Source: a virus
Virus record (IMG/VR): IMGVR_UViG_3300021440_000014
Location: 1 to 64,000 of that record
Direction: 5' to 3' (one strand)
Length of the DNA: 64,000 nucleotides
Below, piece after piece: positions 20,562-45,005 of this stretch (position 1 is the stretch's first letter; each line of letters begins with the position of its first letter). The position numbers were made by a program, and so were the translations under genes. The notes beneath the pieces were generated by a model, which was not told the origin of the DNA, did no database searches, and saw nothing but the letters and a program-made list of their open reading frames with translations.

Positions 20562-21211
20562 AAAAGTTAACAAATATAAAGCTTCATGGGATATTAGGCG
20601 AAGAGGTTGGGATAAAAGAATGTAATCTTTCGATATCTTCTGTTTCAGAAGCTATCAGAGCATTAGAGGCTTTAACAAAGAATAAGCTTTATAAATTTTT
20701 TAGGGATAAAGACTCGGAAGGAATTGCCTATAAGGTTTTAATTAACGGAAGGGAAGCAGAGGTCGAAAACTTAAAAGAAGATGATCTTGATAGAATTAAA
20801 AACAGTGAGCTATGCATGAATTTTAATGATTTAAAAAGTATAGATATAGTCCCCGTTATTCAGGGGTCAGGGAAAGCGGGATCTATAGGAGCAATAGTTT
20901 TAGGTGTCATATTAATAATAGTTGGAGCCTATCTCTCTGCTTTTGGTGGTGCGGCCCTAATTGGCGCAGGTATAGGTTTAATTGTTGGCGGCGTCATGTA
21001 TCTTCTCTCTAGTCCTCCCAAAATAGACGATTTTAGAGAAGTTAAAGGCGGGGGAAGAACTTCTTATCTGTTCAGTGGCCCTCAAAACACAACTAGAGAA
21101 GGTGGGCCTGTTCCCGTAGGATACGGAAGAATGATTGTAGGAAGTCAAGTAATATCTGCTTCTTACGAAGTGTCACATGCTAACGCAGATTATAATCCAT
21201 TAACATCATAA
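20558..21211 (+). CDS. Lambda gpI-like tail assembly protein
   Basis: IKLHGILG...EAIRAL, IDIVPVIQGSG, Gly-rich hydrophobic segment, SYLFSGPQNT..EGGPVPVGYGRMIVGSQVIS. Confidence 0.9.
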   Translation: MKKLTNIKLHGILGEEVGIKECNLSISSVSEAIRALEALTKNKLYKFFRDKDSEGIAYKVLINGREAEVENLKEDDLDRIKNSELCMNFNDLKSIDIVPVIQGSGKAGSIGAIVLGVILIIVGAYLSAFGGAALIGAGIGLIVGGVMYLLSSPPKIDDFREVKGGGRTSYLFSGPQNTTREGGPVPVGYGRMIVGSQVISASYEVSHANADYNPLTS

Positions 21212-24200
21212 TGAGCGACGAAATTAAATTTTTCATAAAAGGTGCCGGTGGCTCACAACCCGAACAACCTAAAGCAAGAATTCCTGTAGAAGCCAGAGAG
21301 GGTATAAGCGGGCAATTTATAGAAAGCGGAAATCTTAGCGTTCCGGTTGATAGAGTTGTTTCTCTTACTCAGATTAGAACTTTAGACTTAATCTCCGAAG
21401 GCGAACTAGAAGGTCTTGTTTCGGGTGAGTATTCTTATGTTGGGTATCCGGGTGAAATTGGATATAGAAGTGCAGTTTTCAAGCCTTTTCAAAGTAAAGT
21501 AATTGGTGGTAAGTCAATACCTTATCTCAGATCTATTTACTGGAACGAAACTCCAGTGGTGGATAAAGATAATTTATTTAACTTCCAGCAGATAGATGTA
21601 ACCTATTCTGCCGGAACTCCAAATGGAAGCTCTTCTGTGGGGATTGGAGATGAGCTAACAATAAGTAGGAACATTCAGGAAAGATTGAGAGGCCCAAACT
21701 CAATACTAGACGCGAAAAATAAACAGCAAGCAATAGGAGAAGCAGAACAATTTGCTAAATACTATAGGATTCTAAATAAAGACTGTAAAGGAGCTATCGT
21801 TAATGTAAGAGTCAACGCTCTTTCTCAAACAATAGTAGGTGGAACTAAAGCTGGTGATACGGCAGCTTCATCTATATTTTATAGAATTTATTATAAACCA
21901 ATATTCAATAAAGCAGGAACAATATCAGCAGAAAATGTAGGCCCAGAAGATCAAGCGGGATACATCGAAGGCAAAGAAGAGATAATAAGAGGCAAAATTA
22001 GTTACGGATACATTAGATCTACAAGAATAACTTTTGATGAGGCTTATTTCCAAGATCCAACTTTTATAGGATGGGCAATTAAAGTATTCAGACTCACTCC
22101 AGATTCTCTTCAGGGAACTTTAAGAAATCAAACCTACATTGATAGCATAACTGAAATTTATGGAAACTCTTTCTGCTATCCAAACTCAGCTATAGTTTCT
22201 CAGAAATTCAGCGCAGAATACTTCAATCAAATCCCAGCAAGAGCATTTGACGTAAGGCTTTTAAAAGTAAAAATTCCTTCAAACTATGACCCAATAACTA
22301 AAACGTATGAAGGAATATGGGATGGGACTTGGAAGTCGGACGAGTATGGCAATGATGGGTTATTTTGGACGGATAATCCGGCATGGTGTTTTTACGACAT
22401 CCTAACTAATAGCAGATATGGGCTAGGCAAGTATATCTCTAGCTCTTTAGTCGATAAATGGACGCTTTACCAAATCTCTCAATATTGCGACACAATGGTT
22501 CCAGATGGGGTAGGCGGCGTCGAACCAAGGTTTACCTGCAACATGATTATTACTAGCAGGGAAGAAGCCTATAGGGTTCTGAGCGACATGGCAAGCATAT
22601 TTAGAGCTATCCTATATTATCAAGGTGGATCAATATACACTTCGATGGATATAGAGAAAGACTCTATCTATCAGTTTTCCAATTCTAACGTAGCAGAAGG
22701 CAATTTTAATTATTCTTCTAGCAGTAAAAGAGTAAGGCATTCGGTAGCTATAGTAAGGTATAATGACAAAACGAATTTTTATTTGCCAGCAATAGAATAC
22801 GTAGAAGATACTGAAGCCATCAAAAAGTATGGATATAGAGAGCTAGAGGTAGCCGCTTTTGGCTGCACAAGTAGGGGTCAAGCTATCAGGTTCGGAAGAT
22901 GGGCATTACTTAGCGAATCTCTTGAAACCGAAACCGTATCCTTCGATGCGGGCCTTGAATCATGTTATCTTAAACCGGGGGATATTTTTAGAGTATCAGA
23001 CTACTATAAAACAAATTCAAGAAGAGGCGGAAGAATTTATGATGCATATAAAAGTGGGCAAAGTTCAGTAGTTCTTTTGGACGACATAGTAACAGGGTTC
23101 AAAGATAGCTCTACATATAAATTAGCAATAACTTCTCCTTCTTACAGTTTCGATCCAACACTTGTTGAAGGGATTACAAGCGACGACATTTCAAACATAA
23201 GAAAAAATCAAGTCCAATTAATAACTTTTTCTGGTGGAGACGTTTCATCTATAAGCGGCTATTCTAGAGTTATAATTAATGAAGACAATTGGTCCAACCA
23301 AATAGATTTTAAAAATAGATATGTAGTGCCTAGATCAGTATGGACTATAGAAGCTACGGGAAATGATTTGTATGATAATAATTTTAATAATCAATGGGAT
23401 TATTATAGAGTCATAAAAATTGAAGAAAAAGAAGAGAATCTATTTGGCATAAATGCTCTTCAGTATGATTTATCTAAATATCAAGCCGTAGATTCTGGTC
23501 TTAACTTTGAAAATCAAGTTGTTCAAATCGGTAACGTAAGTGCGCCTGACTCTCTATTTTTAGAGTATGTAGATTTAGAAGGATCTAGTAATCTAAAAGC
23601 TATTAAATACTCTATCTCGAAGACGAACATGGATGGAGTAAACGGATTCCTTGTTTATGCTAAACTTGGAGATTGGGAGTCAGAAGATTTTTCAGAAAGA
23701 TTTACCAACGGTAATATTCCTCAAGTAATACCTCAGACTCCAAACAGCGAGTTTTTAATTAACGTTGCCTCTAATAGTAATCCAAGCGGAAATTTCATTC
23801 CCCTTGAAAATGGAACATACTACTTTAGAGTTTATTCAAGGAATCTTCAAGGTATACCTTCTGAAAATGGGGTTTCTAGTTCCATTTCAGTATTTGATCT
23901 TAATAAATTTCAAGGCTTAAGAATAAGCTCTCTTAGAGTCGAAGGAAATTCAGATGCGTTGTTATCTCAAAAAGCTGAAGATACTATATCCTTTATTTCT
24001 CCGACTTTTAGATGGCAGGCATCTTTAGAAAATGCTCCTTCTACACCCTATACTCTAGGGGATGTATATTACAGAATGACGATTAGGAAATCTACAAGTC
24101 CTAACTCTTCTGCGCCCGCTACATCAGATGAAAGCCCTATCGTTGGAGATCCTTATCAGCCTTCTAGCGTTATATACCACGAAGAAAAAGGGTATAAACC

Positions 24201-25506
24201 GGATGACGTAAATAATCCTAGTTTATCATTCGATTTAATTGAAAATATTTCTGCTTTTACTAAATATTATACAAATCAGCCTCAAGGTCTTACTCCAAGT
24301 GGGGCTATAAGAGATTACGATGTAGTCGTAGAAGCACATCTTCAAGACGGATCTAGTTCGGCTGGAGGCAATATATTCTCTACGGTAAGAGGAGGAAATT
24401 TAGATTCTGAGTATTCTCAAAGCAAAACTAATGGATGGGATATTTTACATGTAAATAATCCAAAAATACCAGCCATACAATTAACGGAGCAAGCAGATTT
24501 GGACTCCTGCCAAATAGCAGCAGTATCAGACCCCACAAGAATATGCACGGAGCAGTGGATTAACTCTAATGGAACCGTAAGTATAGATATTAAGACTAAT
24601 AATCTGCTAGATGATATAGCTGGAGGTTTTATATATAGTTGCAGAGAAATTTTTTCCACAGAAGAAGCTTTAAATGGCAAAAAAGCAAATGGAACGTCTA
24701 TTTACAGAGGAGAATTTTCGGATTTATCTAATCCGTTAAATGCAGCCTCTAATTTGAAAGACATTAAAAATGGATACGTTGCAGTATCTTTTTATGACAA
24801 TTTAGATAAAGCTTTCAGGGATGAAATGCTCAAGGTTAACCCTAAATACAATGACGTATTTATTAGCGGTTTAAATGTTTCTAATGCTGCTGGGGCAAAA
24901 CTTAAATCAATATCTTCTACTCTTGGCAGCTATGTTGCGTGGGGGCAAGTATTTTTTAAAGGAAAGAGAAAAACAGGTTCAACGACCAAATGGGTAATAG
25001 AAGAGTTGTCTTGGTTTGGGCCGGGAATAATAAGTGTTATCGATGACGGCTCTACTCAAAACTACGCAAAAATAAGAATAGGATTAGACTCGGAATTAGT
25101 AGACCAAAATGCAAATACCGCATTTAATATATCTTATACTTATTCTAATACTCCAGTTGGGACAAATACAGTTCCGGTTTTTAAAACAAATAAAAACTTG
25201 CCATTACTTTCAGCAGGGACTTCTCCACATAATAGATTTACTATTGCAGACAATAATTTGCCTATAGAATATATTTCTAAATGGACTAATCCATCAAGCG
25301 TAGAAGATATTCATCATTACAACTTAGAAAATGTTGTTACTATCTTAGAGCTAACAAATGAATACGCTATAGCAAAAATAGATATTCCTCAATTAACTGC
25401 GACTTCCAGCATTTATAATGCGACAACAGAAGCAAAAATATTCATTGGAATAATGCAGTCTTCGGAAGGAAAAACTCTATCAGCGGACATAGGTAAAGAA
25501 TTTTAA
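21211..25506 (+). CDS. Lambda gpJ-like central tail tip / host-specificity protein
   Basis: LDLISEGELEGLV, KVKIPSNYDP, WDGTWK, WTDNPAWCFYDILTNSRYGLG, DKWTLY.ISQYCD..VPDG, EPRFTCN, AFGCTSRGQA.R.GRW. Confidence 0.92.
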   Translation: MSDEIKFFIKGAGGSQPEQPKARIPVEAREGISGQFIESGNLSVPVDRVVSLTQIRTLDLISEGELEGLVSGEYSYVGYPGEIGYRSAVFKPFQSKVIGGKSIPYLRSIYWNETPVVDKDNLFNFQQIDVTYSAGTPNGSSSVGIGDELTISRNIQERLRGPNSILDAKNKQQAIGEAEQFAKYYRILNKDCKGAIVNVRVNALSQTIVGGTKAGDTAASSIFYRIYYKPIFNKAGTISAENVGPEDQAGYIEGKEEIIRGKISYGYIRSTRITFDEAYFQDPTFIGWAIKVFRLTPDSLQGTLRNQTYIDSITEIYGNSFCYPNSAIVSQKFSAEYFNQIPARAFDVRLLKVKIPSNYDPITKTYEGIWDGTWKSDEYGNDGLFWTDNPAWCFYDILTNSRYGLGKYISSSLVDKWTLYQISQYCDTMVPDGVGGVEPRFTCNMIITSREEAYRVLSDMASIFRAILYYQGGSIYTSMDIEKDSIYQFSNSNVAEGNFNYSSSSKRVRHSVAIVRYNDKTNFYLPAIEYVEDTEAIKKYGYRELEVAAFGCTSRGQAIRFGRWALLSESLETETVSFDAGLESCYLKPGDIFRVSDYYKTNSRRGGRIYDAYKSGQSSVVLLDDIVTGFKDSSTYKLAITSPSYSFDPTLVEGITSDDISNIRKNQVQLITFSGGDVSSISGYSRVIINEDNWSNQIDFKNRYVVPRSVWTIEATGNDLYDNNFNNQWDYYRVIKIEEKEENLFGINALQYDLSKYQAVDSGLNFENQVVQIGNVSAPDSLFLEYVDLEGSSNLKAIKYSISKTNMDGVNGFLVYAKLGDWESEDFSERFTNGNIPQVIPQTPNSEFLINVASNSNPSGNFIPLENGTYYFRVYSRNLQGIPSENGVSSSISVFDLNKFQGLRISSLRVEGNSDALLSQKAEDTISFISPTFRWQASLENAPSTPYTLGDVYYRMTIRKSTSPNSSAPATSDESPIVGDPYQPSSVIYHEEKGYKPDDVNNPSLSFDLIENISAFTKYYTNQPQGLTPSGAIRDYDVVVEAHLQDGSSSAGGNIFSTVRGGNLDSEYSQSKTNGWDILHVNNPKIPAIQLTEQADLDSCQIAAVSDPTRICTEQWINSNGTVSIDIKTNNLLDDIAGGFIYSCREIFSTEEALNGKKANGTSIYRGEFSDLSNPLNAASNLKDIKNGYVAVSFYDNLDKAFRDEMLKVNPKYNDVFISGLNVSNAAGAKLKSISSTLGSYVAWGQVFFKGKRKTGSTTKWVIEELSWFGPGIISVIDDGSTQNYAKIRIGLDSELVDQNANTAFNISYTYSNTPVGTNTVPVFKTNKNLPLLSAGTSPHNRFTIADNNLPIEYISKWTNPSSVEDIHHYNLENVVTILELTNEYAIAKIDIPQLTATSSIYNATTEAKIFIGIMQSSEGKTLSADIGKEF

Positions 25507-25511
25507 AATAT

Positions 25512-26375
25512 ATGAGAGCATCAATACTAAAAAACACAAACAGAGCAGTTTCATCTTCAGAGGAATCTTGGGGATCGCTTAGAGAAAACACAATGGTAAA
25601 ATTTGGAAATGATTCTGAATTCTACAAAATTGGTTCAAGTAAGCAATTCATGTTCATAAAAAACTTTAAGTCAATTAATCAAAATCAAATTCTTATTGAA
25701 GACGATATTGGAATTGCCCTGAACGTTTTAGATACAGTTCAAGTATCCTTTAAGGAATATGAGCTTTTAACCGTTATTAAGGAAGAGAATAGGGGGAGCA
25801 AATATAAAGTGGGAGATTTACTTACTATTGCTGGCGGAATTCCGTCTAAAGACACTCAGACCAATATTGATTATTCTACTAAGTTGGTAGTATCGGAGGT
25901 TGGCGCAGATGGGGAAATATTACAAATAAGACTGGAGCATCCGGGTAAATATATTTGCGCTCCAGAACAGAAATGTAATTTAATTGGCGGGCATGGTAGC
26001 GGAGCGACTGTATTGGCAGATTTCGTAGTATCAGATCATCGATACATTACTGAAAGAACAGTGACGAGAATAGATAAAAATGAAAAAGGAACAATTATTA
26101 CCCTTGACTCCAAGATAGACTCAGCAGTTACAGATGGTAAAATTTCTGTAACTAAATGGGAGCTTTTTATTACGTCTAATTACGCGGGAGAATCAAAATA
26201 TAATGAGCAGATACAATTTATAAGAGATTTCTCGCCAAATTTAGGTATTCCATTTTTATTGAAGGATAATCAATCCCCAGAAGCTATTTACAATTTAGCA
26301 ATATTGAAAATAGACTCTGAGTTTACTAAACTTCAAAATAGGATAAAAGAGCTAGAATCAAGAATTAGGGGATAA
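25512..26375 (+). CDS. Putative tail-associated protein
   Basis: Directly after gpJ. Beta-rich with a GSKYKVGD...GG.GSGA module and a C-terminal coiled coil (LQNRIKELESRI). Confidence 0.5.
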   Translation: MRASILKNTNRAVSSSEESWGSLRENTMVKFGNDSEFYKIGSSKQFMFIKNFKSINQNQILIEDDIGIALNVLDTVQVSFKEYELLTVIKEENRGSKYKVGDLLTIAGGIPSKDTQTNIDYSTKLVVSEVGADGEILQIRLEHPGKYICAPEQKCNLIGGHGSGATVLADFVVSDHRYITERTVTRIDKNEKGTIITLDSKIDSAVTDGKISVTKWELFITSNYAGESKYNEQIQFIRDFSPNLGIPFLLKDNQSPEAIYNLAILKIDSEFTKLQNRIKELESRIRG

Positions 26376-29300
26376 TAGTCCGCCATTTTTCTTTTGCTCT
26401 ATAATAACTTCCACAACTTTCGACTTGACAAGTTCGGCGAATTTCTTGCTGTTTTCTTGATCTTTTCCAGAGCGCGAACCTGAAGAGTCAGAAGATGTTT
26501 TAGATTCTACAGAACCTTCCTTAGACACGTTGACCGTGATGCTAATATTATTAGTTCCACCAGTAACGCTTTGGACTTGATTATTTGAACCTGAATCATT
26601 CTTGCCGTTAGACTTTAAAGATTTAACAGCTTCAGATAGCTCAGATATTACAGAGGATATTTTATCCATGTAATTAGACTCATTGCCATTTGAAGAATAA
26701 GATCCTACATATCCGCCTTCGGCATATTTTCTTCCATTATTTATATTGTTGAAGAAACTTGTTCCGTATTTGTCTACGGCTGATTTTTTAACTACAAATT
26801 CACCCCCAGTTAACATCGCGGGAATTTTATCCGTAGAAGAATTTCCGCCAAATACAGTGCCGCCCCCGGCATATTTTTTAATTATACCTCCATTAGCTCT
26901 GCCTAAACCATTAAAAATTGCTGCTACTTCTGTATCTCCAGAATTGTAAGATGTAGTTCCTCCAAACTTATCTCTTACAATATAGCCATCACTACCTTTT
27001 GTTATAGTAGACCCATCTCCTAGTTTCTTTGTATTAGAAGATGAGCTACCTATTTGACCTAATCCATAGGCACCAACCTGAATACCGGCAGATATATAAG
27101 CAGATCTTAGAGAATTATTTCTCTGCCTATTAAAGTTTCTAAGAGTTAATCTTCTATTTTTATCGTAGTCTTTCCTATCTCCAAGATAACCAATTAATTC
27201 CTGCTCTCTTTCGAACTTTAATCTATTAGCGGGATTATTTTCATCAGTTTGCCCCAAGGCTGATAACTGATTACTTACATTAAAATATCCTCCAGTAGGA
27301 CGTTTAGCATCATTATAAGCGAAAGCATTATTCAATACTATAGAAGATCTGTCCCCTTCAGAGAAACTTCTAGTTACCTGCGCTGCGCCAAAGTCCTGAT
27401 TTCCACGACTCTTCTTAGGCAGTTTAGTTCCATCTCCATATATAGGAGAATTTTTGTTCAACTCATTAAGGTAATCTTCGCCAATTGCTTGCACCGCAGA
27501 TCTTTTTATTACATATTCCCCTTCCGTCAGCATTGCTGGGACATCATCTCTAGTTCCTGACCCGCCTTTAACTCTGCCACCAGAGCTATATCTCATTATC
27601 TTGCCACCCATGTTCTTCTTTTGTGAAGTAGATGAGCTTCCAAAAGCCGAAGCCACGGACTTACCAGCTTCCCCAAGATACGAGAATAGTAAATTAGTAG
27701 ACAAATCTATGCTTAAATCTTGAACTCTTTTAAGAACTGAATTTCCAAAACTTCTAAATGCATCATCAGCGTCTTTAGTTCCATCTGCAAATGATTTAAA
27801 TGCGCTAGAGAACTCTGATTTGATTGTCGCAGCCGTAGTCACGGCTCCATCAGAAATTTCCTTATAATAGTCTTGACTATTGTATGCGGTTAACTCATTT
27901 CCAAATAAGCTCGCAGCTTGAGAAATTTTAAAATCTTTAGACTGTATTGATTTTTCATTTGCCAATCTTAATTGAGCATTATAATCTTTTCCGCTTATAT
28001 CTCCCCTATTATAAGCTTCTTTCGATCTAGCGGCTAAGAACTTTTCAGTTAAAGTAAGTTGTTTCTTAGCTATCTCGATTGCTGATAGCCCATTTCCAAT
28101 GGATTTTTTCTCTAATTTATCTAGCTGATCTCTTAAGTTTTTGGATTCTCTTAAATTTTCCGTGCCATCTTTAGATAATGCGGCCAATCTTGCTGCGCTA
28201 TTAGCTCTATTATCTAGGCTAGAAATAACAGAAGAGTAAGCTTGATTTGCATCGCCATTATCTCCAGTAGCCTGAAATACTGCTTGTTTCCTGAATAAAT
28301 CTTCGCCTATCTTACCAGATTGATCCGAGTTAAGTAATTGGCTCAATAATGAAGCAAATGACTCTCTTGTTCTTCTAGCCGTTAGCCCGCTCGTATCGAA
28401 CTGAATATTCTTTGCTTTTTCAGTTAATGCCTCAGATAATGTTCTTTCTTCACCTGCGCTAGGAGCAGGATTTATATACTTAGAAGAAGTTTGCTGAAGC
28501 GGAACAACGGGCGTATTTGGCGTTCTAATCCCAAATGCATCAAATAATGGGTCGCCAGCTAAAGGATTACTTTTACCTGCTGAAGCGTAAAATGAGATAG
28601 GATCTCCAATGGCTCCCCTAGAGCCGTCATACTTCTCTCCCCTTAACGCTGCTACAAGTTCAGCAACATTTTTAACGCTTACATTAAAACCATTATCGGA
28701 CGAAAGTTTCTGTAATATAGAGTCAAGATTTTGGCTATTTAATTTTATTTCGCTATATAAATTAGAAGACTGTCTTAATATTTCATCTTGTTTAGTTTCG
28801 GTTTTAAACTCATTAGTAAGCTGTTTTCTCGCTATCTCTTCTGGAGAAGCGGGTAGAAGATCATTAGGGAAGTTCTGTTTAATTGTATTGGCTAAATCGC
28901 TAACCAAAGGCTCAAACAAGCTAGTTCCTTGAACGTCAACGCCTAAAGATTGAAGTAATTTTGCGTTTTGGAACTTACCTTGGCCGGAAAGACCGAAATC
29001 TCCAATTTGCGCCCCTAACTCAGAAAGCGTATTTCCAGTAAGGATAGACTGTTTAAAATTAGCAGAGTTGCTTAATATATTTCCTGCGCCCCCGCCAACG
29101 CTTAATTTCTTCTGAAGATCTATCAGATCTATTTCGGCTCTTCTTTTTTCTTCCGACAGAGTTACGAGTTCTTTATTCCTATTTTCTACAGATCCCACTT
29201 GTAGTCCCCTTGAAATACCTAAATTTTTTATTGTAGAATTTAGTTCTTCAAGTAACTTTTTTTGATCCGCCGTAGTTTCCGCAGTTCCATCTGGTCTTAC

Positions 29301-32300
29301 GAGTGGATCTAATTTTACAATACTTTTTTCTAAAAAGCCTTGTAATTTGTCTATCTGTTGAAAAACAGATCCAAAATCTCCAGAGGAAGAAGATTTAGCT
29401 ATAGACTCTTTAAGATCTAATAGTGGGGCGGTAAATTCATTGGCTTTTCTAACTGCTGATTTTCCATCTCCAGTTGCTTCCGTTCCGGTTCCAAAAGCTT
29501 CTTCTATTCTTTTTTTGAGAATAGATAAAGCTCCATTATCAATAGAATCAGAAATTCCAGAAACAAAATTTTGATTGATTTTAGCTATCGAACTTACTCT
29601 TTCTTCTTCTATTTGTCTTCTATCATTCTGGAATCTAAGATTAGTTAAAGTTTTAGGCCCAGCAAAATTTTCCTGTATTTTAGCAAAATTTTCAAATCTT
29701 AAAGAATTAGATTTTTTCTGAAACTCTAAGTTAGCAGTCGCCTCCTCATTAACAGAAGACATTACTGTTTTAAAGTTATTTATTACTTCTATAGTTCTAA
29801 ATAAAGAAGCTGAAAAATCTGATGTAGTTTCTAAAGTTCTTTCTCTCTCAGATTTTCCAAGAGCTTCTCTGTTCACTCTTTTTAAAACCGCATCTCCAGA
29901 TAAGTTTTGTTCTAGAAATCTTTGAAATTTATCTATAAACTCGATTGGGTTTGTTTTAGCTCCTTCTTTTAAACTTTGAATAGCATCAAATTTTTGGGTA
30001 TCTGGTAAATTTGATTTATTTATAAAGTTTTCAAAAGCTTTAACACTGGCTTCTATCGAAGACGCAGGAGAGAGAGGATCAAACTTTTTAAATCCTTCTT
30101 CAATATCTTTTTTGAAATTTACCACTTCCGAAAGAGGAATATTTTGTAAATTTTGACCATTTTTAAATGGAATTTGGTTTATAAATCTATTAAAACTTTC
30201 AGAACTAGATACGTTTTCTCTTGTTCTAAATTTTAAATCCTGTAATACTCCGAGGTCATAAGAAGGATCTGCGCCAGCACCCAAAATATCAAGAGAGCCA
30301 ACTGAAGTTCTTCTGTTATTTATAGCTTCTTCTAGTCTATCTCTATTTGGAATAGAAAACTTTTCTAATTTATTATTTATGTTTTCTGATCTACCTAATT
30401 TAGAAACATCTTTTTTCGTATTAGAACCAAACTCTACTGCAAAATCTGCGTTTTTCTTTTCAAAAGCTATAGAATCAATAATTTCTTTAACAGCTTCCTG
30501 TAGACCTTTAAAACCTCCAGTAGATAAACCTTGATTAATTTTGCCTCTTTGTTCCAAGGATAGATTACCAAAAATATTTTTTTGCTCTTTTTGTAATTCG
30601 CTTATTTTTTCAGAACTTAAACCCCTACTATTTCTAAGGGAATCTTCTAATTTAATATAATTAGATAGATTTTCAGAATTTTCCCTATAAGAAGTATTTA
30701 TCCTCTCTAAATTCTTTTGTAAATCTGGAAGGTTACTTATAAATGCTTCAAAAATTCTAGGAAATTCAGTTGCTACTCCAATAGCGGCACCAGCCGCTAT
30801 TCCCGGTGCGCCAAATACTGCACCAAGCCCAGCGTAAGACGCAACATTTCCGACTGATTGAGTTAATTGACCAAATCCTCTTTGGTTTTTAGTTTCGTCT
30901 GTAAAAAGCTGAGATCCAATGCCACCCAAAATTGGGGCAGCAAATCCAGCGGCTATAGAAATAGTATTTAATTTGGAATCGCGGCTTTGTTTAGCGGCTT
31001 CGTATCTTTCTCTATTTTCATTTTTTAATTGATTAGCCTTTGTTCTTGTTTCTCCAAAAAAAAGACTTTTTAAAGAACCTGCTGCGTCAATCTTTTCCTG
31101 AAGAATTGCCTCTTCTTCTTTAAGTTTTGCGGTTTTTTTCTCTTGTATTTTTAATTGAGTAAAATACTCCCCCTTCATTTTTCTACTTAAAGGAACTATA
31201 TCATTAATTATTCTGTTTACTTCAGTAAAATCGTCGGAAGTTCCACCAAGTTTCCTTATGTTCTGTTCTATTACATTCTTAAAATTTTCTACGTTTTTCT
31301 TTTTAGATGATACTTCCCCTGTTTTAATTTTATTAGAAAAAGAAGATATCAAATCATTGATTACCTCAGATCCACCTAATTTATTTATAGATGGGTTTCT
31401 GAAAGAGAAATTTTCTTTCAAAAAGAATGAATCGTAACCAGAATTTTGAATTAATTTAGACTTAGAGCCTATTCTTTTAGAAAGTTCTTCAGATTCCAAA
31501 GATTCTCTTTCTTTTTTGCCAGCAAGATAGTTTTGCATTGAAGAAAATTTAATTTCTCCTTTTGGTTCATCAGGGAAAAACCCATAAGCGTTTTTATTAT
31601 AATTAACTGATCTTGTAAGGCTATTTCTTAAGCTTTTTACGCCTTTTGCCGTTAAGCTAAATTCCTCAGATAAATCTTTAATTTTGGAGTCTACATCTTT
31701 GAAGGTAAATGTGTCATTTTTAATTTGAGATTTTAAATCTTCCAAAACTCTTTGGAACTCTTCCCTTTTGGATGCGGGAGTAAAAGGCTTAAAGGTTTCT
31801 GAGCTAGATGCAAAATCCGGGGCATAGTTAGGAATTAACCCATCAGCCGCGCCATGCGTCTTAGGATTTAGCCCTTGGCTCAAAGCCCTATTAATGCCCT
31901 GATTTAATCCAAGTGGCTCATCCTTTGTGTTATATACCCCAAGTCCAGCAGGATTCAGTGGAGATTTAAGAAAAGGAGATGAAGAAGCCTTTATTAAAGA
32001 AGGAGAAACTCCCGCCCCGACTTCTCTACTTACTGCTTTAGAAAGAGATGAATAGTTAGGTATTAATCCTTTTGAGGCCGGAATTAGTCCAGAATCCCTC
32101 AAGTATTTAGTTAAACTTAAGTCGTTTAGACCAACTTCCCTGCTTCTTCCAAATGTTCCATTTTTTACTAGAAATTTTAATTTAGGTTGAGCAAAAGCAT
32201 TAGTAATAGCCTCTGCAACCGATTCAAGTTTATTTACATTTACTATTTTATTGGAAATTTTAGCAAAATCATTTTCTCCTGCAACAGAAATACCAGTTGC

Positions 32301-35300
32301 AGTATTAAGGGTTTTTCCTCCTAGTTGAGAATGAGTTTCATCAAATATTTTAGAAGGGATTCTACTCGTTATATCTAGCTTGTCGTCAAGGAAATGAGAG
32401 TATTCATGAATTAAGGCTCTTGAAGTTTTTCTGGCGGAAATAGACTGAAGATCTTCCTTCATTCTGCCAGAGAGTTGACCGTATCCTCCTTTGAAGCCAA
32501 AATTATCGTCTAGTTTTCCAGCTAAATTATCAAAATTTAAAGTAATTAAATCTGGATCATATACCGCTTTTGTGCTAGAAGATAATTTGCCCTCTATCTT
32601 TCTAAAATCTTTTGCCACGTCTAATTTTGGTGTTGCGCCCACTTTACCAAGAATAAAATTAGAATATTTCTCGAAAGATTCAGTAGAGAGGGCTTTACTT
32701 ATAAATTCATCAGGAGTAAGAGAAAAATTACTATAAGACTTAGGATCTGTCACCAACCTATCTTCTAAATTAATACTGCTAAATAAATTACTCGCGTAAT
32801 TAGGAACTATTCCAGCCGCGCCAAATTGAGATTTCAACTCTTTTAATCTTGATTTAGATAATTTAAATTCTCCGGGATCTATAACGGTCGCCAAGCTTCC
32901 ATTGGCCACCATTGCGGCAAATGTTTGAGAATTTTTATCTCCAAATCCACTTAAGAAATTAGCAGAATTTCTGCTATTAGCTAAAGCAGAAAGCTCCCTG
33001 CTTAATCTATCATTAACAGTAAAATTACTTAAATGAAGATCATCTGGCGTTATCCCATGATTTAAATCGAAATTTTCAAAAGCCTTACCTATGTATGAAG
33101 TTGAAAAAAGTCTAGTTACTGCGTCAGAAGAGTTTTCATGACTCGTTGGATCTTTTATAAACTCTTTATAAATACCTCCTTCAGATAATGAATTATTTAA
33201 AGATTTAAAAATTTTAGGAAATTTTACTCCCGGCAAAGAAATACTTTCGAGATACTTAGAGATTAAGTATTCTTTTTCAATCTCTCTAGGATCTACAAAT
33301 TTTTTAAATTGTTTAAAACCAACTGGAACGCCGCCAATTAGCTGTTTTAAATCTAGGAATCTTGCGTTTTGGCCTATCTCCCCAATTTGCTCTCCTTGTA
33401 TTCTATAATTTGGAACAAGACCAGCCGCAAAATTCTTATATGGATCAAACCCATGAACATCTTCGAAAGCTTTTTTATAGTTCGTGCCAGCTTCACTATT
33501 TTTAGGAGGAAGGATAGCGGGTTGACTCATCCCGAAGTCTTTAACTTGTTCTTTTGAGTTATAAATCACATTTCCCATGCCGGGAACTGACATCCTCTTT
33601 ATAGAACCAGCTTCGTAACCACCTAGCAATGCGCCAACCTTTTCTTTCGTCTCTTCAGGGATTAATCCTCCAGCAGCGGTCTTACCCGGAGAATTTGGCA
33701 ACACTATTTTACCAGCCTTATCAAAGCCTATCTGATTAGATTTCAAGAAATTAGCTGAAGCCTTCGATGTTACAGCGTCTAATCTAGAAATAGCCTCAAG
33801 TCTTTGCTGAGTAAGAGACAATAATGTTCTTTCTACTTCAACTTGAGAAATTGTTTTATTAAGTATTTTTTCCCTTAATCCCGGCTCAAAAGAAAGAGTA
33901 TCTTTCAGTGCCTCGGATATCTGTTTCTGTTGCAGCGCAAATTTATTAAGACCAGCAAAGCTTTTTAATGCGTCTGCCGTAAATTCTGCGAAAGATAACG
34001 CCAATTTACCTACAGCAATAGAGACTATCGCCAGCCCCGGACCAGCAATAAACTCTCCAAGTCCCTTCAAGGCACCATCAGCTATTTGTCTTCCAATTCC
34101 TTTTGACTGTTCGCCAACATCCCCAAATAAAGACTCAACTATTCCCGTCGTGTTTTTTATAACAGGAGCGATGGTAAGATTGCCAACAGTTTCACCTAAC
34201 TGCCTAAATGTCTCTTTACTCTTGTTGAGAACCGAAGCCAAGCTTTTATTATATTCTTCGTTCCTTTTGCTGGCTTCGTTTTGGGACTGAGCGGATTTTT
34301 GAGTGGCTTGATCTACTACGCTGTATTCCTTAGACAAGTCGCCAAGCAAGGCTTTTAAAATGTTAATTTGATAAACGCTACCGACAAGTTCAGCTAAGTA
34401 AGACTGTTGAGAGTCCGAAGCACTATTAAAAGTTCCAGCAAAGTTCTTTAAAATCTCTGACACTGGCAAAATCTGTTGTCCCGCCCCTCTTACTACAGTT
34501 CCCAAACTTTCTAGTTGAGCAATAACTTCTGGTCTTTCTATTCTTGTGAAAATAGTCTTTAAAGCGTTACCAATTACAGCACCACCACGGGCAGTTGTCT
34601 GCTGCGCTGAGGTAACAAAACCTATCAAGCTGTCAATACTAACTCCAGCTTCGGCAGCGGTGCTACCCACACGTTTCAGAGCCTCGGCTAAGTCTTTTGA
34701 GCTAACGGCAAATGCCGCGTCAACATTAGCGAATTTGTTAATTACTTCTGTAGACGTTAATCCAGCCTTTGAAAAGCTGTTAACCGAAGCCGTAAGAGAT
34801 TCTACGCTATCTTCAAGAGATATACCGGCTTGCCTAGATAAAATAGCCGCATCTTTAAGTCTTATAAGGGTTTCTTCCGCACCAAGACCTTGACGTGCTA
34901 ATTCAGTAGCTCCAGCCGCAATTTCAGAAAAAGACTGACCCGTATCTTTAGCTATACTAAAGATTTCGTTTTTAAAATTAGAAAGCTCTTCAGCATTTTG
35001 ATTTAGGAGAGTATTTAATTCAGTAAATGACTTGTTAACTTCTATAGTAGAAGAAACTAAGCTTTTTATGCCCTGAGATACCTGAAATATTAAACCAGCA
35101 GAAGCTCCGAAAGCTATGACACGCGCATTCGCAGCCGCCATAGATTTCGAAAACTCGTCTGTAGAAGAGGTTATTTGACCAAGGGGTCTAGTTAAGGAGC
35201 TTGAATTGAGCCTTCTATTAAATAAATTCTGTATTTTAGACGCACTTTCCTCAGCTTGCCTAAATAAAGGAGAAAAATCTCCACCAACAGATAAATTGTA

Positions 35301-35315
35301 AGTCTCAACTGGCAT
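26358..35315 (-). CDS. Tape measure protein (TP901-type core) carrying internal kinase-like and zincin domains
   Basis: N-terminal TMP core (ELARQGL...FANVDAAFAVSSKDLAEAL...TARGGAVIGNALKTIFTRI), long helical body, hydrophobic segments, and C-terminal GG.V...D.VPAML..GE.V motifs like lambda gpH. Lies downstream of the tube and chaperone genes. Confidence 0.92.
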   Translation of the reverse strand: MPVETYNLSVGGDFSPLFRQAEESASKIQNLFNRRLNSSSLTRPLGQITSSTDEFSKSMAAANARVIAFGASAGLIFQVSQGIKSLVSSTIEVNKSFTELNTLLNQNAEELSNFKNEIFSIAKDTGQSFSEIAAGATELARQGLGAEETLIRLKDAAILSRQAGISLEDSVESLTASVNSFSKAGLTSTEVINKFANVDAAFAVSSKDLAEALKRVGSTAAEAGVSIDSLIGFVTSAQQTTARGGAVIGNALKTIFTRIERPEVIAQLESLGTVVRGAGQQILPVSEILKNFAGTFNSASDSQQSYLAELVGSVYQINILKALLGDLSKEYSVVDQATQKSAQSQNEASKRNEEYNKSLASVLNKSKETFRQLGETVGNLTIAPVIKNTTGIVESLFGDVGEQSKGIGRQIADGALKGLGEFIAGPGLAIVSIAVGKLALSFAEFTADALKSFAGLNKFALQQKQISEALKDTLSFEPGLREKILNKTISQVEVERTLLSLTQQRLEAISRLDAVTSKASANFLKSNQIGFDKAGKIVLPNSPGKTAAGGLIPEETKEKVGALLGGYEAGSIKRMSVPGMGNVIYNSKEQVKDFGMSQPAILPPKNSEAGTNYKKAFEDVHGFDPYKNFAAGLVPNYRIQGEQIGEIGQNARFLDLKQLIGGVPVGFKQFKKFVDPREIEKEYLISKYLESISLPGVKFPKIFKSLNNSLSEGGIYKEFIKDPTSHENSSDAVTRLFSTSYIGKAFENFDLNHGITPDDLHLSNFTVNDRLSRELSALANSRNSANFLSGFGDKNSQTFAAMVANGSLATVIDPGEFKLSKSRLKELKSQFGAAGIVPNYASNLFSSINLEDRLVTDPKSYSNFSLTPDEFISKALSTESFEKYSNFILGKVGATPKLDVAKDFRKIEGKLSSSTKAVYDPDLITLNFDNLAGKLDDNFGFKGGYGQLSGRMKEDLQSISARKTSRALIHEYSHFLDDKLDITSRIPSKIFDETHSQLGGKTLNTATGISVAGENDFAKISNKIVNVNKLESVAEAITNAFAQPKLKFLVKNGTFGRSREVGLNDLSLTKYLRDSGLIPASKGLIPNYSSLSKAVSREVGAGVSPSLIKASSSPFLKSPLNPAGLGVYNTKDEPLGLNQGINRALSQGLNPKTHGAADGLIPNYAPDFASSSETFKPFTPASKREEFQRVLEDLKSQIKNDTFTFKDVDSKIKDLSEEFSLTAKGVKSLRNSLTRSVNYNKNAYGFFPDEPKGEIKFSSMQNYLAGKKERESLESEELSKRIGSKSKLIQNSGYDSFFLKENFSFRNPSINKLGGSEVINDLISSFSNKIKTGEVSSKKKNVENFKNVIEQNIRKLGGTSDDFTEVNRIINDIVPLSRKMKGEYFTQLKIQEKKTAKLKEEEAILQEKIDAAGSLKSLFFGETRTKANQLKNENRERYEAAKQSRDSKLNTISIAAGFAAPILGGIGSQLFTDETKNQRGFGQLTQSVGNVASYAGLGAVFGAPGIAAGAAIGVATEFPRIFEAFISNLPDLQKNLERINTSYRENSENLSNYIKLEDSLRNSRGLSSEKISELQKEQKNIFGNLSLEQRGKINQGLSTGGFKGLQEAVKEIIDSIAFEKKNADFAVEFGSNTKKDVSKLGRSENINNKLEKFSIPNRDRLEEAINNRRTSVGSLDILGAGADPSYDLGVLQDLKFRTRENVSSSESFNRFINQIPFKNGQNLQNIPLSEVVNFKKDIEEGFKKFDPLSPASSIEASVKAFENFINKSNLPDTQKFDAIQSLKEGAKTNPIEFIDKFQRFLEQNLSGDAVLKRVNREALGKSERERTLETTSDFSASLFRTIEVINNFKTVMSSVNEEATANLEFQKKSNSLRFENFAKIQENFAGPKTLTNLRFQNDRRQIEEERVSSIAKINQNFVSGISDSIDNGALSILKKRIEEAFGTGTEATGDGKSAVRKANEFTAPLLDLKESIAKSSSSGDFGSVFQQIDKLQGFLEKSIVKLDPLVRPDGTAETTADQKKLLEELNSTIKNLGISRGLQVGSVENRNKELVTLSEEKRRAEIDLIDLQKKLSVGGGAGNILSNSANFKQSILTGNTLSELGAQIGDFGLSGQGKFQNAKLLQSLGVDVQGTSLFEPLVSDLANTIKQNFPNDLLPASPEEIARKQLTNEFKTETKQDEILRQSSNLYSEIKLNSQNLDSILQKLSSDNGFNVSVKNVAELVAALRGEKYDGSRGAIGDPISFYASAGKSNPLAGDPLFDAFGIRTPNTPVVPLQQTSSKYINPAPSAGEERTLSEALTEKAKNIQFDTSGLTARRTRESFASLLSQLLNSDQSGKIGEDLFRKQAVFQATGDNGDANQAYSSVISSLDNRANSAARLAALSKDGTENLRESKNLRDQLDKLEKKSIGNGLSAIEIAKKQLTLTEKFLAARSKEAYNRGDISGKDYNAQLRLANEKSIQSKDFKISQAASLFGNELTAYNSQDYYKEISDGAVTTAATIKSEFSSAFKSFADGTKDADDAFRSFGNSVLKRVQDLSIDLSTNLLFSYLGEAGKSVASAFGSSSTSQKKNMGGKIMRYSSGGRVKGGSGTRDDVPAMLTEGEYVIKRSAVQAIGEDYLNELNKNSPIYGDGTKLPKKSRGNQDFGAAQVTRSFSEGDRSSIVLNNAFAYNDAKRPTGGYFNVSNQLSALGQTDENNPANRLKFEREQELIGYLGDRKDYDKNRRLTLRNFNRQRNNSLRSAYISAGIQVGAYGLGQIGSSSSNTKKLGDGSTITKGSDGYIVRDKFGGTTSYNSGDTEVAAIFNGLGRANGGIIKKYAGGGTVFGGNSSTDKIPAMLTGGEFVVKKSAVDKYGTSFFNNINNGRKYAEGGYVGSYSSNGNESNYMDKISSVISELSEAVKSLKSNGKNDSGSNNQVQSVTGGTNNISITVNVSKEGSVESKTSSDSSGSRSGKDQENSKKFAELVKSKVVEVIIEQKKNGGLLSPNS

Positions 35316-35352: not shown

Positions 35353-36336
35353 TTATACATTACTTATCCTTAACATATCTTCCATGCTTAATTTTCCACC
35401 CCTCTTGGCGGCTTCTTTAATAAGGTTATTCTTGGAAACTTGGCCACCAAGACCTATATGATCAAGATCTTCTTTAGTCGCGCCAACCAAGGAAACGTTA
35501 GAATTATCCTTATCATATTTACTAAGAACTTTTTCGGCATTCTTGTTAGTCTCAAACCATTCTACAATCTTGTCGGGGTCGTCTTTAATATCGTCTGGTA
35601 TACCATTAGTATTAGCTAAGATGGATTTATAATATTTTGCGTGGGAAAATACTTCATTTTGATAGAAAGAAAGATGGGCAACTGGTTTGCCCCAAAAAGC
35701 ACAAGGATCTTCGCTGCAAATATAAAAATAGTTCATGAAAGAAGGGGAAATGCTTATTTTTTTTAGAGTTCTTGAGCTAAATTTCTCTGTATGCTCTAAA
35801 AATTTAGAAGAAATAGAAATATATTCATCTGGCTCCAATTCGTCATAGTCCTCTTCTGTCCAAAATGAATTTTTTAAATTTTCGTCCGAAAAAGATGACA
35901 GAAAGAAGAATTTGTCATTTATTCTTTTATCAGCGAAACTTTCTGCTGTTATACCAATTGCTTTATCTTTTTTAGACTGTAATTCCTTTATTTTCTTTTC
36001 AAATTCGGCTATCTCAAATTTCATATACTCAATCTGAGATTTAAGAAACATTTTCCTTTTGGTTTCTTCCAGTCTTTTTACGTAGTCTATTTTTTCCTCT
36101 AAATCTCTCTCTTCTTTTTGAGTCCATTCCCCGGAGGAGTATACTTCTTGCAGTTTCTCCTGATATGTTTTTACTCCTTTTTTGGCGGCTTTCTCCAAGC
36201 TATCAGCGTAAATCTCTTCTAACTCCCCAGATATGAAAATGTCTATATGTTTTACATATAGACATTTACCCTGAAAATTATACTTACTATATCCTTTTAT
36301 TATTTCGGATTGAAGTTTTTTTAAATTTTCACTCAT
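35353..36336 (-). CDS. Putative tail assembly chaperone (gpGT-like position)
   Basis: Immediately upstream of the TMP. Acidic and helical, paralogous to 36329..37078 in its N-terminal part. Confidence 0.55.
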   Translation of the reverse strand: MSENLKKLQSEIIKGYSKYNFQGKCLYVKHIDIFISGELEEIYADSLEKAAKKGVKTYQEKLQEVYSSGEWTQKEERDLEEKIDYVKRLEETKRKMFLKSQIEYMKFEIAEFEKKIKELQSKKDKAIGITAESFADKRINDKFFFLSSFSDENLKNSFWTEEDYDELEPDEYISISSKFLEHTEKFSSRTLKKISISPSFMNYFYICSEDPCAFWGKPVAHLSFYQNEVFSHAKYYKSILANTNGIPDDIKDDPDKIVEWFETNKNAEKVLSKYDKDNSNVSLVGATKEDLDHIGLGGQVSKNNLIKEAAKRGGKLSMEDMLRISNV

Positions 36337-37078
36337 TAGCCGCTTTTTGCGTAGCTACTTCAACTTTATCTTCAACTGGCTTTTGTTCTGGATTTTTATT
36401 AAGCCCAACCGTGTCAGCTAATACATCAAAATCTTCTTTGTTTTCAATTCTTCCAGTATACCAAGCAGTAACCAAAAGAAGCATTTTTCTAGCGAGATTG
36501 ATATAGAAATCATCATCTCTCTCAGCAAAGTCATCATAAGTTTTTAACTTAGTTTTATAGTCTCCTTCACCGAAAAACGGTTTTTCGTTTTTAAAGAAGG
36601 CTAACTGGAATAGCCACCACAAAACAGTTTTATTTCTTGAGATAGTTTCAGCCGTGTGCTCATACAAAGACTGTTGTGAAGATTCTATGCTTTGGAGGAT
36701 TCCTCTTAAGTCAGAGATTTCATTAATAATTGCATTAATTTTATCCTTTTCTTCTTTAGTTCTTTCGTCTTCCTTTTTAAGAGACAAAGCCTGATACTCA
36801 GACTCTTTAGCTTTAATGAGTCCAACAGACTCAATATAAGTTTCTTTGTCTTTTTGGGAAAGCGTTCCTAATTCATCTGCGAATTTTACAGCCAGTTGAT
36901 TTCTAGTTAGCAGCCCTTCTTTAATGCAATTAGAAAGCGCGACGCCATAAAACATCTCTTCCTCTTCGAAAAGAACACGATTAGGTTTTCTTAAAAAGAG
37001 TTCAATTGCCTCGTATTTGTCTTCACCTTTTTCGTTTTTTACTTTTTTATAAGCCGTGAATTCGTATAATTTTTTCAT
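36329..37078 (-). CDS. Putative tail assembly chaperone (gpG-like position)
   Basis: Between the tube genes and the TMP. Coiled-coil, acidic, with an LFLRKPNR motif. Confidence 0.55.
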   Translation of the reverse strand: MKKLYEFTAYKKVKNEKGEDKYEAIELFLRKPNRVLFEEEEMFYGVALSNCIKEGLLTRNQLAVKFADELGTLSQKDKETYIESVGLIKAKESEYQALSLKKEDERTKEEKDKINAIINEISDLRGILQSIESSQQSLYEHTAETISRNKTVLWWLFQLAFFKNEKPFFGEGDYKTKLKTYDDFAERDDDFYINLARKMLLLVTAWYTGRIENKEDFDVLADTVGLNKNPEQKPVEDKVEVATQKAANE

Positions 37079-43091: not shown

Positions 43092-45005
43092 CTAATCTAT
43101 TTTCTTGAAGCCGGGACCGATATCTCTTCTTCTAGAGCTATTTCCAGAATAAGACGCTTTTGGATCTGCTACGAATGGATTAGTTCCATAATAATATCTA
43201 TATCCTGCGGGAATCCTTGTTGGTTCATTTTCGGTAGGCTTATATGGATCGTATGGTGGCCACTGTAAGCTACCAAAGAATGTAGGCTTTGAAGTTAAAT
43301 AAAAGCTATTTGGAATTGTTTTATCATAAGTATGAACTACATTTTTTTCATCCCAAACAATTGCAGATCCGGGAGCTAAATCGCTGGCTCTATAACTCCA
43401 ATTACCCCATCTTATCATTGTTTCTCTTACGTTAGTATCGTATTCAAGAGATTCTCTTGGATTACGAGAATCATCTCCTGAACCATTTATTATATACCCT
43501 AATTTAAAAAGCGTAGTATAAACGTTGTCGTAAGGGAAATATTTTAGATTATAACACTCGTAAATAGATTCTGGTGCCCCTCCCGTTGTTCCTCCTAAAA
43601 TATTACCAACAAACATCCAATAATGATTTCTTCTACAAACATCTACGGTTATCGTCTGGGCGTCTATAAATTCATTCCCTCTATCTTGAGAAAATATTCT
43701 ATTTCTAAGAATAGTAAAATGAGAGCTTGTCCCCCAATATTCGTCTGCTCTTATACCTGATGCTGAAAAATTTCCTTCTATTAAATTCATAAAAGGATGT
43801 CCTCCGTGCATCAAATTACTAAATCTTCTAATAATATCTGAATCTCCTTCTCCTAATCTCCACCAAATATTTGTAACGAAATTATAGCTAACTACATTTC
43901 CAGAAGTGCATCCTTCAAAACATACTGTTCCTATCGTTAGTTTTTCTGATATATTATCCGTAATCAATAAAGCAGAAGTATGAGGGCCAAGAAAAATAGG
44001 ATATGCCCTGTCTGAAGTATAATGTAAATCTCTTTCGTTTCCGACCGGAACTCCTCCATAGAGATAGCAACCGCTTATTTCTGACCATAAAGCGTTATAA
44101 ACCCAGAAAGCCCTTCTATGTGCTCCTATCAATTTCACATTTTTTACCCAACAATTAACCCATCCAAAAACCGTAATAGTATCAAACGCATCTGAGTCTA
44201 GGTTATCAAGAGTTAAATTTTCTAAACCAGCCTCCTCTACCATTGGCCCAATTCTTACCGCTTGAGGTTGGTTTGTATAAGAAAAATACAAAGGAGGATC
44301 TATTTGAACCGTCGTTGAATTAACTACGTTAGTTATTTTGACTATTTGCCCACATGGTCTAGTCCCAGATTCTCTACCCAACCAAGTAGCATACTGATTA
44401 GCTCCTCCTCCTCCTGTTCCGGCTGATGTAAAATTCGAAACAGGAAGAATAGCACCCTCATTCGTTTTAGTGTCTACTATGAGATATTGACCTACTGACC
44501 AATTATGTGTTGTAGAAGTAGTTAAATTAACGGAATCTTTTGTTGGAGACACTAAATCAAAAGCTGGATAAGTTGACCAAGAGAAATCAAAACCCATATC
44601 AAAATTAACCATTCTTTTTGATAAAAGTTTAATTGGAGTAATTACTCCTGTTTCTGCATTCGTTGAATAGGAAGATATATAAAAAAGATCTGGAGAAACC
44701 CCTTTAATAATAGTTTCATACATGTTTTCTCCTTTTAAAGTTACATAACTTGGGATTTTTAAAGCTTCATCTATTAAATATGTTCCATTTTTTAAAAGAA
44801 CAATTTTATTTGGTGGGCAGTTACTTATAGCTGCTTGTATTTGTTTCGTTGTAGCCCCCGGATTTATAATAGTATAAATTTCTCTGTCCGTATTCACCGT
44901 AGATCTAAGACCCGGATTCCAGTTTATTCTTAAATTATCTGGAATAATAGTAGAAAAACAGTTATGAATAAATAGGAAAAAAAGTAAAAAATAAATTGAT
45001 TTCAT
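43092..45005 (-). CDS. Signal-peptide-bearing right-handed beta-helix (pectate-lyase-3/tailspike-like) protein, paralogue C3
   Basis: MKSIYFLLFFLFIHNCFS signal. IQAAISNCPPNKIVLLKNGTY...VTLKGE, MHGGHPFMNLIEGN, RADEYWGTS. Confidence 0.75.
   Translation of the reverse strand: MKSIYFLLFFLFIHNCFSTIIPDNLRINWNPGLRSTVNTDREIYTIINPGATTKQIQAAISNCPPNKIVLLKNGTYLIDEALKIPSYVTLKGENMYETIIKGVSPDLFYISSYSTNAETGVITPIKLLSKRMVNFDMGFDFSWSTYPAFDLVSPTKDSVNLTTSTTHNWSVGQYLIVDTKTNEGAILPVSNFTSAGTGGGGANQYATWLGRESGTRPCGQIVKITNVVNSTTVQIDPPLYFSYTNQPQAVRIGPMVEEAGLENLTLDNLDSDAFDTITVFGWVNCWVKNVKLIGAHRRAFWVYNALWSEISGCYLYGGVPVGNERDLHYTSDRAYPIFLGPHTSALLITDNISEKLTIGTVCFEGCTSGNVVSYNFVTNIWWRLGEGDSDIIRRFSNLMHGGHPFMNLIEGNFSASGIRADEYWGTSSHFTILRNRIFSQDRGNEFIDAQTITVDVCRRNHYWMFVGNILGGTTGGAPESIYECYNLKYFPYDNVYTTLFKLGYIINGSGDDSRNPRESLEYDTNVRETMIRWGNWSYRASDLAPGSAIVWDEKNVVHTYDKTIPNSFYLTSKPTFFGSLQWPPYDPYKPTENEPTRIPAGYRYYYGTNPFVADPKASYSGNSSRRRDIGPGFKKID

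Follow-up and report, generated by a model that had tools for sequence, protein, structure and literature searches.

The tape measure protein (TMP) of a phage occupies the tail tube and is ejected from it before the DNA. Proteins of this kind with embedded cell-wall enzymes, such as those with the mycobacteriophage TM4-type motifs and Pb2 of phage T5, carry one or two envelope-directed motifs in fixed places, and the embedded muralytic domains of TMPs act without any known release; the TM4-type and T5 Pb2 proteins are not known to contain a variable array of several cassettes, a conserved joint or enzymes of a cytoplasmic type, for example kinases and ADP-ribosyltransferases. Uniform cleavage sites are familiar from viral polyproteins, and Asn-dependent maturation cleavages from capsid proteins. 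Many unrelated enzymes are combined in one virion-associated chain, predicted to be injected with the DNA, in the polyvalent proteins (Iyer, Burroughs, Anand, de Souza and Aravind 2017, J Bacteriol; PMC5512222), whose carriers are MuF, portal, N4-type RNA polymerase and conjugation proteins. Their repertoire includes truncated kinases without a C-terminal lobe, ART-PolyVal, GNAT, nucleases, peptidoglycan hydrolases and zincin-like peptidases proposed as chain processors; the phrase "tape measure" is absent from the text of that paper. In the contractile injection systems of actinobacteria, the Sle1-type TMP-related effectors are reported to consist of a TMP-derived scaffold inside a tail-like tube with an exchangeable domain (Nagakubo et al. 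2026, PMC13277306). Here we analyze the TMP encoded in the virus record IMGVR_UViG_3300021440_000014 of IMG/VR, of which the first 64 kb (positions 1 to 64,000, the window) were studied, and describe within it an array of units, several of them predicted to fold separately, fenced by a short conserved peptide. We consider it fairly probable that this TMP contains a cargo bay of exchangeable enzymes that would be carried in the tail and delivered to the host.

The record has a total length of 172,010 bp, is rated complete by CheckV and has a G+C content of about 35%. The TMP gene (26358–35315, on the minus strand, as are all TMP features below) encodes a chain of 2985 amino acids (aa), designated P0001 among the TMPs compared here. 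Its TP901-type core, aa 79–406 (34098–35081), is matched by TIGR01760 with an E-value of 4e-35 and 121 bits (cut-off 28.8), the Pfam family PhageMin_Tail (PF10145) matches aa 122–311 (E 2.5e-23, 83 bits, cut-off 33.2), and tape-measure PHROGs match both ends of the protein, the C-terminal matches covering aa 2479–2621 and 2807–2874. The context is also that of a TMP: a very long open reading frame (ORF) in a tail gene block, adjacent to a J-like central fibre gene, with hydrophobic stretches and C-terminal repeats. By these profile matches and this context, the protein is a TP901-type TMP. A first hydrophobic stretch lies upstream of the array at aa 415–448 (33972–34073; peak of 1.88 in a 19-residue Kyte-Doolittle window) and a second, glycine-rich one downstream of it at aa 1448–1518 (30762–30974), so that the array does lie between the two main hydrophobic stretches of the protein, as had been stated in the first-pass annotation, made from the letters of the window alone. 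The region that follows the array, aa 1165–1500 (30816–31823), was recognized by local jackhmmer searches as a conserved backbone, which in relatives directly follows the array wherever the array ends, for example at aa 902, 1243, 1727, 3230 and 3400. The two repeats at the C-terminal end of the protein, at approximately aa 2570–2612 (27480–27608) and aa 2807–2867 (26715–26897), have the form GG...D-[DK]-[VI]-P-A-M-L-T-x-G-E-[YF]-V-[IV]-K and align with C-terminal regions of several tape-measure PHROGs.

Five copies of a short motif, here called the joint, had been reported inside the TMP, and the translation and motif scan place all five where they were described. Joint 0, AAGGLIP (aa 547–553, 33657–33677), is degenerate and lacks the N-Y pair; joint 1 is AAGLVPNY (aa 630–637, 33405–33428), joint 2 AAGIVPNY (aa 833–840, 32796–32819) and joint 4 AADGLIPNY (aa 1156–1164, 31824–31850). 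Joint 3 (32052–32096) is doubled: ASKGLIPNY (aa 1080–1088, 32052–32078) is abutted by a sixth, partial joint, DSGLIP (aa 1074–1079, 32079–32096), which had been overlooked and which may be a remnant left when a unit was lost. The segments between the joints measure 76, 195, 239 and 67 aa, in agreement with the lengths first estimated. The strict form of the motif, G[LIVFM][LIV]PN[YFW], occurs four times in the TMP; in 20,000 shuffles of the protein it occurred on average 0.002 times and never four times or more, which excludes chance. When all 172,010 bp of the genome were scanned in six frames, the strict motif was confined to the TMP ORF. Across 226 TMPs retrieved from the family, which are the basis of all array statistics given here, the joint has the consensus A-[SA]-x-G-[FL]-[IV]-P-N-[FY]-[AS], with variants such as GHIP, GYIPNF and G-IPNF among relatives. 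Within the TMP gene, the joint copies differ in synonymous codons, from which it follows that selection acts on the peptide and not on the DNA. The idea that the linkers are recombination points is thus sustained as far as exchange at the peptide joint is concerned, as described below, whereas a recombination site at the DNA level is ruled out by the same synonymous differences.

Comparisons between related TMPs point to the joint as the place where units are exchanged. Of the ends of high-identity alignments, 42% fall no more than 5 aa from a motif, versus 6% of random array positions, and the median distance to a motif is 10 aa for alignment ends and 53 aa for random positions. Individual pairs illustrate the same behavior: P0064 and P0067 share 92% identity as far as residue 1647, which lies six residues beyond a motif, and diverge from there on, while P0084 and P0086 lose homology at the motifs at 964 and 962, respectively, and regain it exactly at those at 1323 and 1460. 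In the most informative pair, P0045 and P0049 are 87–91% identical throughout, and P0049 differs from P0045 by one additional unit, an HExxH cassette of about 200 aa that lies between GLIPNF and GNIPNF, directly before the last module of the array. These alignments support modular exchange at the linkers, and bear out the earlier description of the protein as a cassette-style carrier in the specific sense that homology breaks at the motif and that P0049 has gained one precise cassette relative to P0045.

The two ends of the array are occupied by small modules, A and B, that bracket the cargo. Module A (aa 554–629, 33429–33656) is a small α/β domain modeled by AlphaFold2 (AF2) with a predicted local distance difference test score (pLDDT) of about 85–96, and module B (aa 1089–1155, 31851–32051) was modeled with pLDDT above 90. 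The model of aa 540–845, built on 119 aligned homologous pieces and with a mean pLDDT of 82.7, contains two separate domains, module A and the domain of about 195 aa that follows it, with all three motif copies in low-confidence parts; a second model covered aa 830–1172. Joint 1 has pLDDT below 50, and joint 2 has low values in both models. The models thus predict that A, B and the 195-aa domain fold as independent domains, in line with the discrete modules first described, and that the joints between them lie in disordered linkers. The similarity first noticed between the two small modules is upheld by a profile-profile comparison of the A and B families with hhalign (E 3e-5, probability 73%), to which the shared flanking motif contributes in part. 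In most relatives an A-type hidden Markov model (HMM) has one match near aa 545–630, the order A...B is kept in 184 of the 226 TMPs, with B as the last array unit in most relatives, and eight residues of B (R, E, N, G, N, E, P and G) do not vary among 99 homologues. Module A has no sequence match in Pfam, NCBIfam or the PDB, and searches of Pfam, NCBIfam, PHROGs and PDB sequences with aa 540–1180 as a whole and with each unit returned nothing. A test for binding between A and B gave a score of 0.25, compared with a mark of 0.32, a result that counts neither for nor against a clasping of the two modules.

Cargo 1, the domain of aa 638–832 (32820–33404), was modeled with pLDDT of about 80–94 and resembles a minimal protein kinase. 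A Foldseek search of the PDB placed human PRPK/Bud32 first (7sza, E 4.7e-4, probability 1.0), followed by RIO1/RIO2 and CK2 with probabilities of 0.97–1.0, and the ESM Atlas returned RIO/Kdo-like clusters with TM scores of 0.50–0.57, normalized by match. An alignment of 29 copies from 25 TMPs shows a conservation of at least 80% for the elements G-x-K-x-F, E, D-L-H-x-x-N and I-D-P-G, and from their order and spacing we infer that they correspond to the β3 ATP-binding lysine, the αC glutamate, the catalytic loop and the metal-binding aspartate. Predicted fold and conserved residues together support the view that cargo 1 is a minimal kinase of Bud32/RIO-like fold whose catalytic residues are preserved, and they likewise support the first description of this segment as kinase-like. 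Domains of this type occupy different ordinal positions in different TMPs. A word-based search, of limited sensitivity, found no stand-alone homologues of the kinase or of the HExxH cargo.

Cargo 2 (aa 841–1073, 32097–32795) contains the sequence HEYSH at aa 970–974 (32394–32408) and is possibly zincin-like. The motif is kept as HELYH in P0100, the sole homologue found (27% identity), and because no other homologue was found the segment is poorly modeled, with pLDDT mostly below 50 in the model of aa 830–1172. The segment has no Pfam match, searches with that model, which also includes module B, using VIA-align and Foldseek against the PDB gave long-helix or noise matches only, and feature searches of the ESM Atlas with the HExxH segment and with the commonest cargo cluster gave nothing usable. 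The term HExxH domain is accordingly a statement at the level of the motif only: the motif claimed by the first-pass annotation is present and is kept in P0100, and of the features of a zincin metallopeptidase, namely an HExxH helix plus a third zinc ligand in a zincin fold, it is the one that was observed. Across the family, HExxH is about 50-fold denser inside arrays than outside them (0.269 versus 0.005 per 1000 aa), mostly in the context T-[LF]-x-H-E-x-G-H-x-x-D. It is found in 26 of 197 arrays (13%); the share increases with length, being 4% for short arrays and 30% for those longer than 1000 aa. P0045, P0049 and P0050 (aa ~780–990) form a natural before-and-after set for an HExxH cassette.

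Both the number and the identity of the cargo units vary widely in the family, which is large. An exhaustive HMMER search with aa 540–1180 retrieved 757 cluster representatives (at 50% identity) with E ≤ 1e-3, 130 of them with E ≤ 1e-30; among the best 150 of the 757, nearly all have the size of a TMP, and modules A and B account for most of the match. Module B is present in at least 155 IMG/VR contigs, and many of the carrier contigs are 150–220 kb long. The span from A to B ranges from 134 to 2655 aa and mostly comprises 1 to 14 motif-delimited cargo units, with a median size of 205 aa and 94% of them no longer than 350 aa. Clustering of the 861 motif-delimited segments by sequence yields 215 clusters, of which 152 are singletons. 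Splitting the TMPs at the motif, as had been suggested, therefore shows cargo that varies in number and identity between a linker and flanking modules that stay fixed. Cargo types that could be named by Pfam are SNase, ART-PolyVal, GNAT, PGDYG, DUF7178 and HIGH_NTase1_ass, with chitinase (PF00182) and lysozyme (PF00959) in some relatives, and PHROGs add endolysin and endonuclease cargo. The commonest cargo clusters received no name from Pfam at E ≤ 0.5 or from the ESM Atlas. A reading of cargo clusters 1 and 2 as PD-(D/E)xK nucleases, suggested by their consensus lines only, is not claimed, as Pfam returned nothing for them at that threshold.

The chitinase, lysozyme and endolysin-like cargo raises the alternative that the inserts are purely envelope or assembly agents, in other words tail-associated lysins or spacers and not host-takeover effectors of the cytoplasm, or largely neutral stuffer by which tail length is tuned. 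The total length of the TMP indeed tracks that of the array (r = 0.82), and most of the cargo has no known function. However, no envelope substrate is apparent for the kinase, ADP-ribosyltransferase, GNAT and nuclease domains, the catalytic residues of the kinase are conserved across 29 copies, and a stuffer needs neither folded domains, nor brackets, nor a conserved joint. We regard this alternative as improbable.

In the mechanism that we favor, the cargo bay lies between the TP901-type core with the first hydrophobic stretch on one side and the downstream backbone with the second hydrophobic stretch on the other, and contains, in this order, module A, one or more globular cargo domains and module B, the units being joined by flexible linkers of about 20 residues centered on the joint consensus. 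As a TMP fills the tail tube and exits before the DNA, the array most likely travels inside the tail and would be released at infection into the envelope or the cytoplasm of the host. Ready-made enzymes would in this way be delivered, as polyvalent proteins are thought to do, and by this analogy delivery into the host is plausible. The joint acts at the peptide level and marks the sites of in-frame gain, loss and exchange of whole cassettes. A partner probably recognizes it as well; a protease that would free the units is the most plausible candidate, followed by a structure to which the joint would dock.

The first of these options leads to a true polyprotein, as proposed in the first-pass annotation. 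The joints would be cut by a protease of phage or host origin, by an HExxH cargo within the array or through self-cleavage at the invariant Asn, triggered by assembly, and the units set free in the cell. A uniform, conserved sequence of about 10 residues between unrelated domains, with N units and N+1 joints, is the arrangement of viral polyproteins, disorder and accessibility are predicted for the joints, and HExxH cargo is concentrated inside the arrays. Processing by zincins is a stated theme of polyvalent proteins (PMC5512222). On the other hand, Peptidase_S78, ClpP and Trypsin_2 were not detected in the CheckV-complete genome; Peptidase_S77 was likewise undetected, a result that is empty since that search had no match in any control genome, and no peptidase Pfam family occurs in the TMP neighborhoods here and in the 202-kb relative L004. 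The restriction of the motif to the TMP, among all ORFs of the phage, makes the head-maturation protease an unlikely cutter, and cuts at joints 0 and 4 would sever the ruler. An embedded HExxH domain as the general processing enzyme is ruled out as a rule, as only 13% of arrays carry the motif and 70% of those longer than 1000 aa lack it. Taking both sides together, we find the polyprotein a tenable minority view and lean, without great firmness, against cutting at the joints. A more far-reaching version, in which the joint is a dedicated release signal, read by a protease or by self-cleavage at Asn triggered by assembly or ejection, and the TMP a programmable polyprotein that loads up to 14 enzymes into the tail lumen between the two brackets and frees them in the host ahead of the DNA, is in our estimate only slightly less probable.

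The second option is an array that remains uncleaved and tethered, its joints serving for docking or packing, for example as short strands recognized by the tail assembly chaperone, the lumen of the tube or modules A and B, and so letting the inserts thread into the tail, while after ejection the enzymes would stay on a membrane-inserted TMP where the DNA enters. The two flanking hydrophobic stretches could anchor such an array on one side of a membrane, A and B are always paired and far better conserved than the cargo, the motif is specific to the TMP, and the muralytic domains of other TMPs, as noted above, function without release. Simple flexible linkers, however, rarely keep an invariant G, P and N over hundreds of copies, and a candidate binding partner was not identified. 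A tethered array appears to us rather unlikely.

Several observations also weigh against the cargo bay as such. That folded domains of 200 aa could lie three abreast in the tube of a siphophage is doubtful, and storage in single file or in unfolded form would be needed. One of the two cargo domains of the present TMP, the HExxH domain, combines a single detectable homologue with a low-confidence predicted fold. Most cargo clusters in the family have no recognizable family, so that the label "effector" extrapolates from a minority. Finally, no match was obtained by tblastn in 50,697 GenBank phage records, and among species-representative genomes only three contigs of metagenome-assembled genomes matched, which indicates that the family is uncultured and leaves the bay without a cultured relative.

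The cargo bay can now be compared with the systems described at the outset. With the TM4-type and T5 Pb2 proteins it shares a TMP whose role goes beyond measuring, an enzymatic or fusogenic part of those proteins acting on the host at ejection. The likeness to viral polyproteins and to the Asn cleavage of capsid proteins, namely unrelated domains split by a repeated short sequence with an invariant Asn before an aromatic or small residue, is a formal resemblance only. The polyvalent proteins are similar in three respects: disparate enzymatic domains are placed in one chain (here a kinase fold and an HExxH motif, to which relatives add SNase, ART, GNAT and lysozyme); the domains are fused to a virion component, here by embedding of the array in the TMP itself, a protein generally known to be ejected; and the repertoires overlap, including, by description, a distinctive group of truncated kinases. 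They differ in that the carrier here is the TMP, with A and B as brackets and with one conserved peptide fencing each unit. The Sle1-type effectors also have a TMP-derived scaffold packaged in a tube with an exchangeable functional domain but, as described, they carry a single C-terminal domain, belong to an intracellular bacterial nanomachine and not to a phage ruler, and have no repeated joint reported. A study of mosaicism in phage proteins reported that, for TMPs, genuine recent mosaicism could not be confirmed (PMC10684548). In the literature searched, no description of a tape-measure carrier, of the A and B brackets or of the conserved joint was found. The suggestion that this is an undescribed system therefore holds in part: injected multi-enzyme virion proteins belong to the polyvalent concept (PMC5512222), whereas the use of the ruler as carrier, the brackets and the uniform joint are new here and extend that concept.

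If the array is delivered, siphophage tails would inject, besides DNA, a customizable enzyme kit comprising kinases, ADP-ribosyltransferases, nucleases and acetyltransferases, and the kit could act before phage gene expression, at the time when host defenses strike. The roughly 150 of 215 segment clusters that are singletons without a recognizable family form a rich and well-bounded catalogue of candidate counter-defense or host-takeover domains. Joint and brackets together provide a simple sequence rule by which payloads can be found and excised, and suggest a standard interface for foreign proteins in a phage tail; they also raise the physical question of how folded domains are stored in a 4-nm tube. 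Should the joint be a release signal, the TMP would represent a natural plug-and-play platform for protein injection, with more than 200 mostly unknown payload families.

The genes around the TMP gene show some further features. The J-like central fibre gene (plus strand; 1431 aa, phrog_31, E 1e-157) and the TMP gene converge, with an 18-nt overlap between the TMP gene and the last ORF of the plus-strand region 21211–26375; a tail module split over two strands is unusual, and the relative L004 has the same layout. Directly upstream of the TMP gene are two ORFs of 249 and 327 aa (35353–37078, minus strand), which overlap each other by 8 nt and have no Pfam or PHROG match; their position suggests a tail assembly chaperone pair. 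Farther away on the minus strand, an ORF of 1495 aa (52453–56940) has no Pfam match, and three paralogous ORFs of about 600 aa (43092–45005, 46890–48698 and 48767–50596) each have an N-terminal match to a pectate-lyase-like β-helix (PF12708), which makes them candidate tailspikes or depolymerases.

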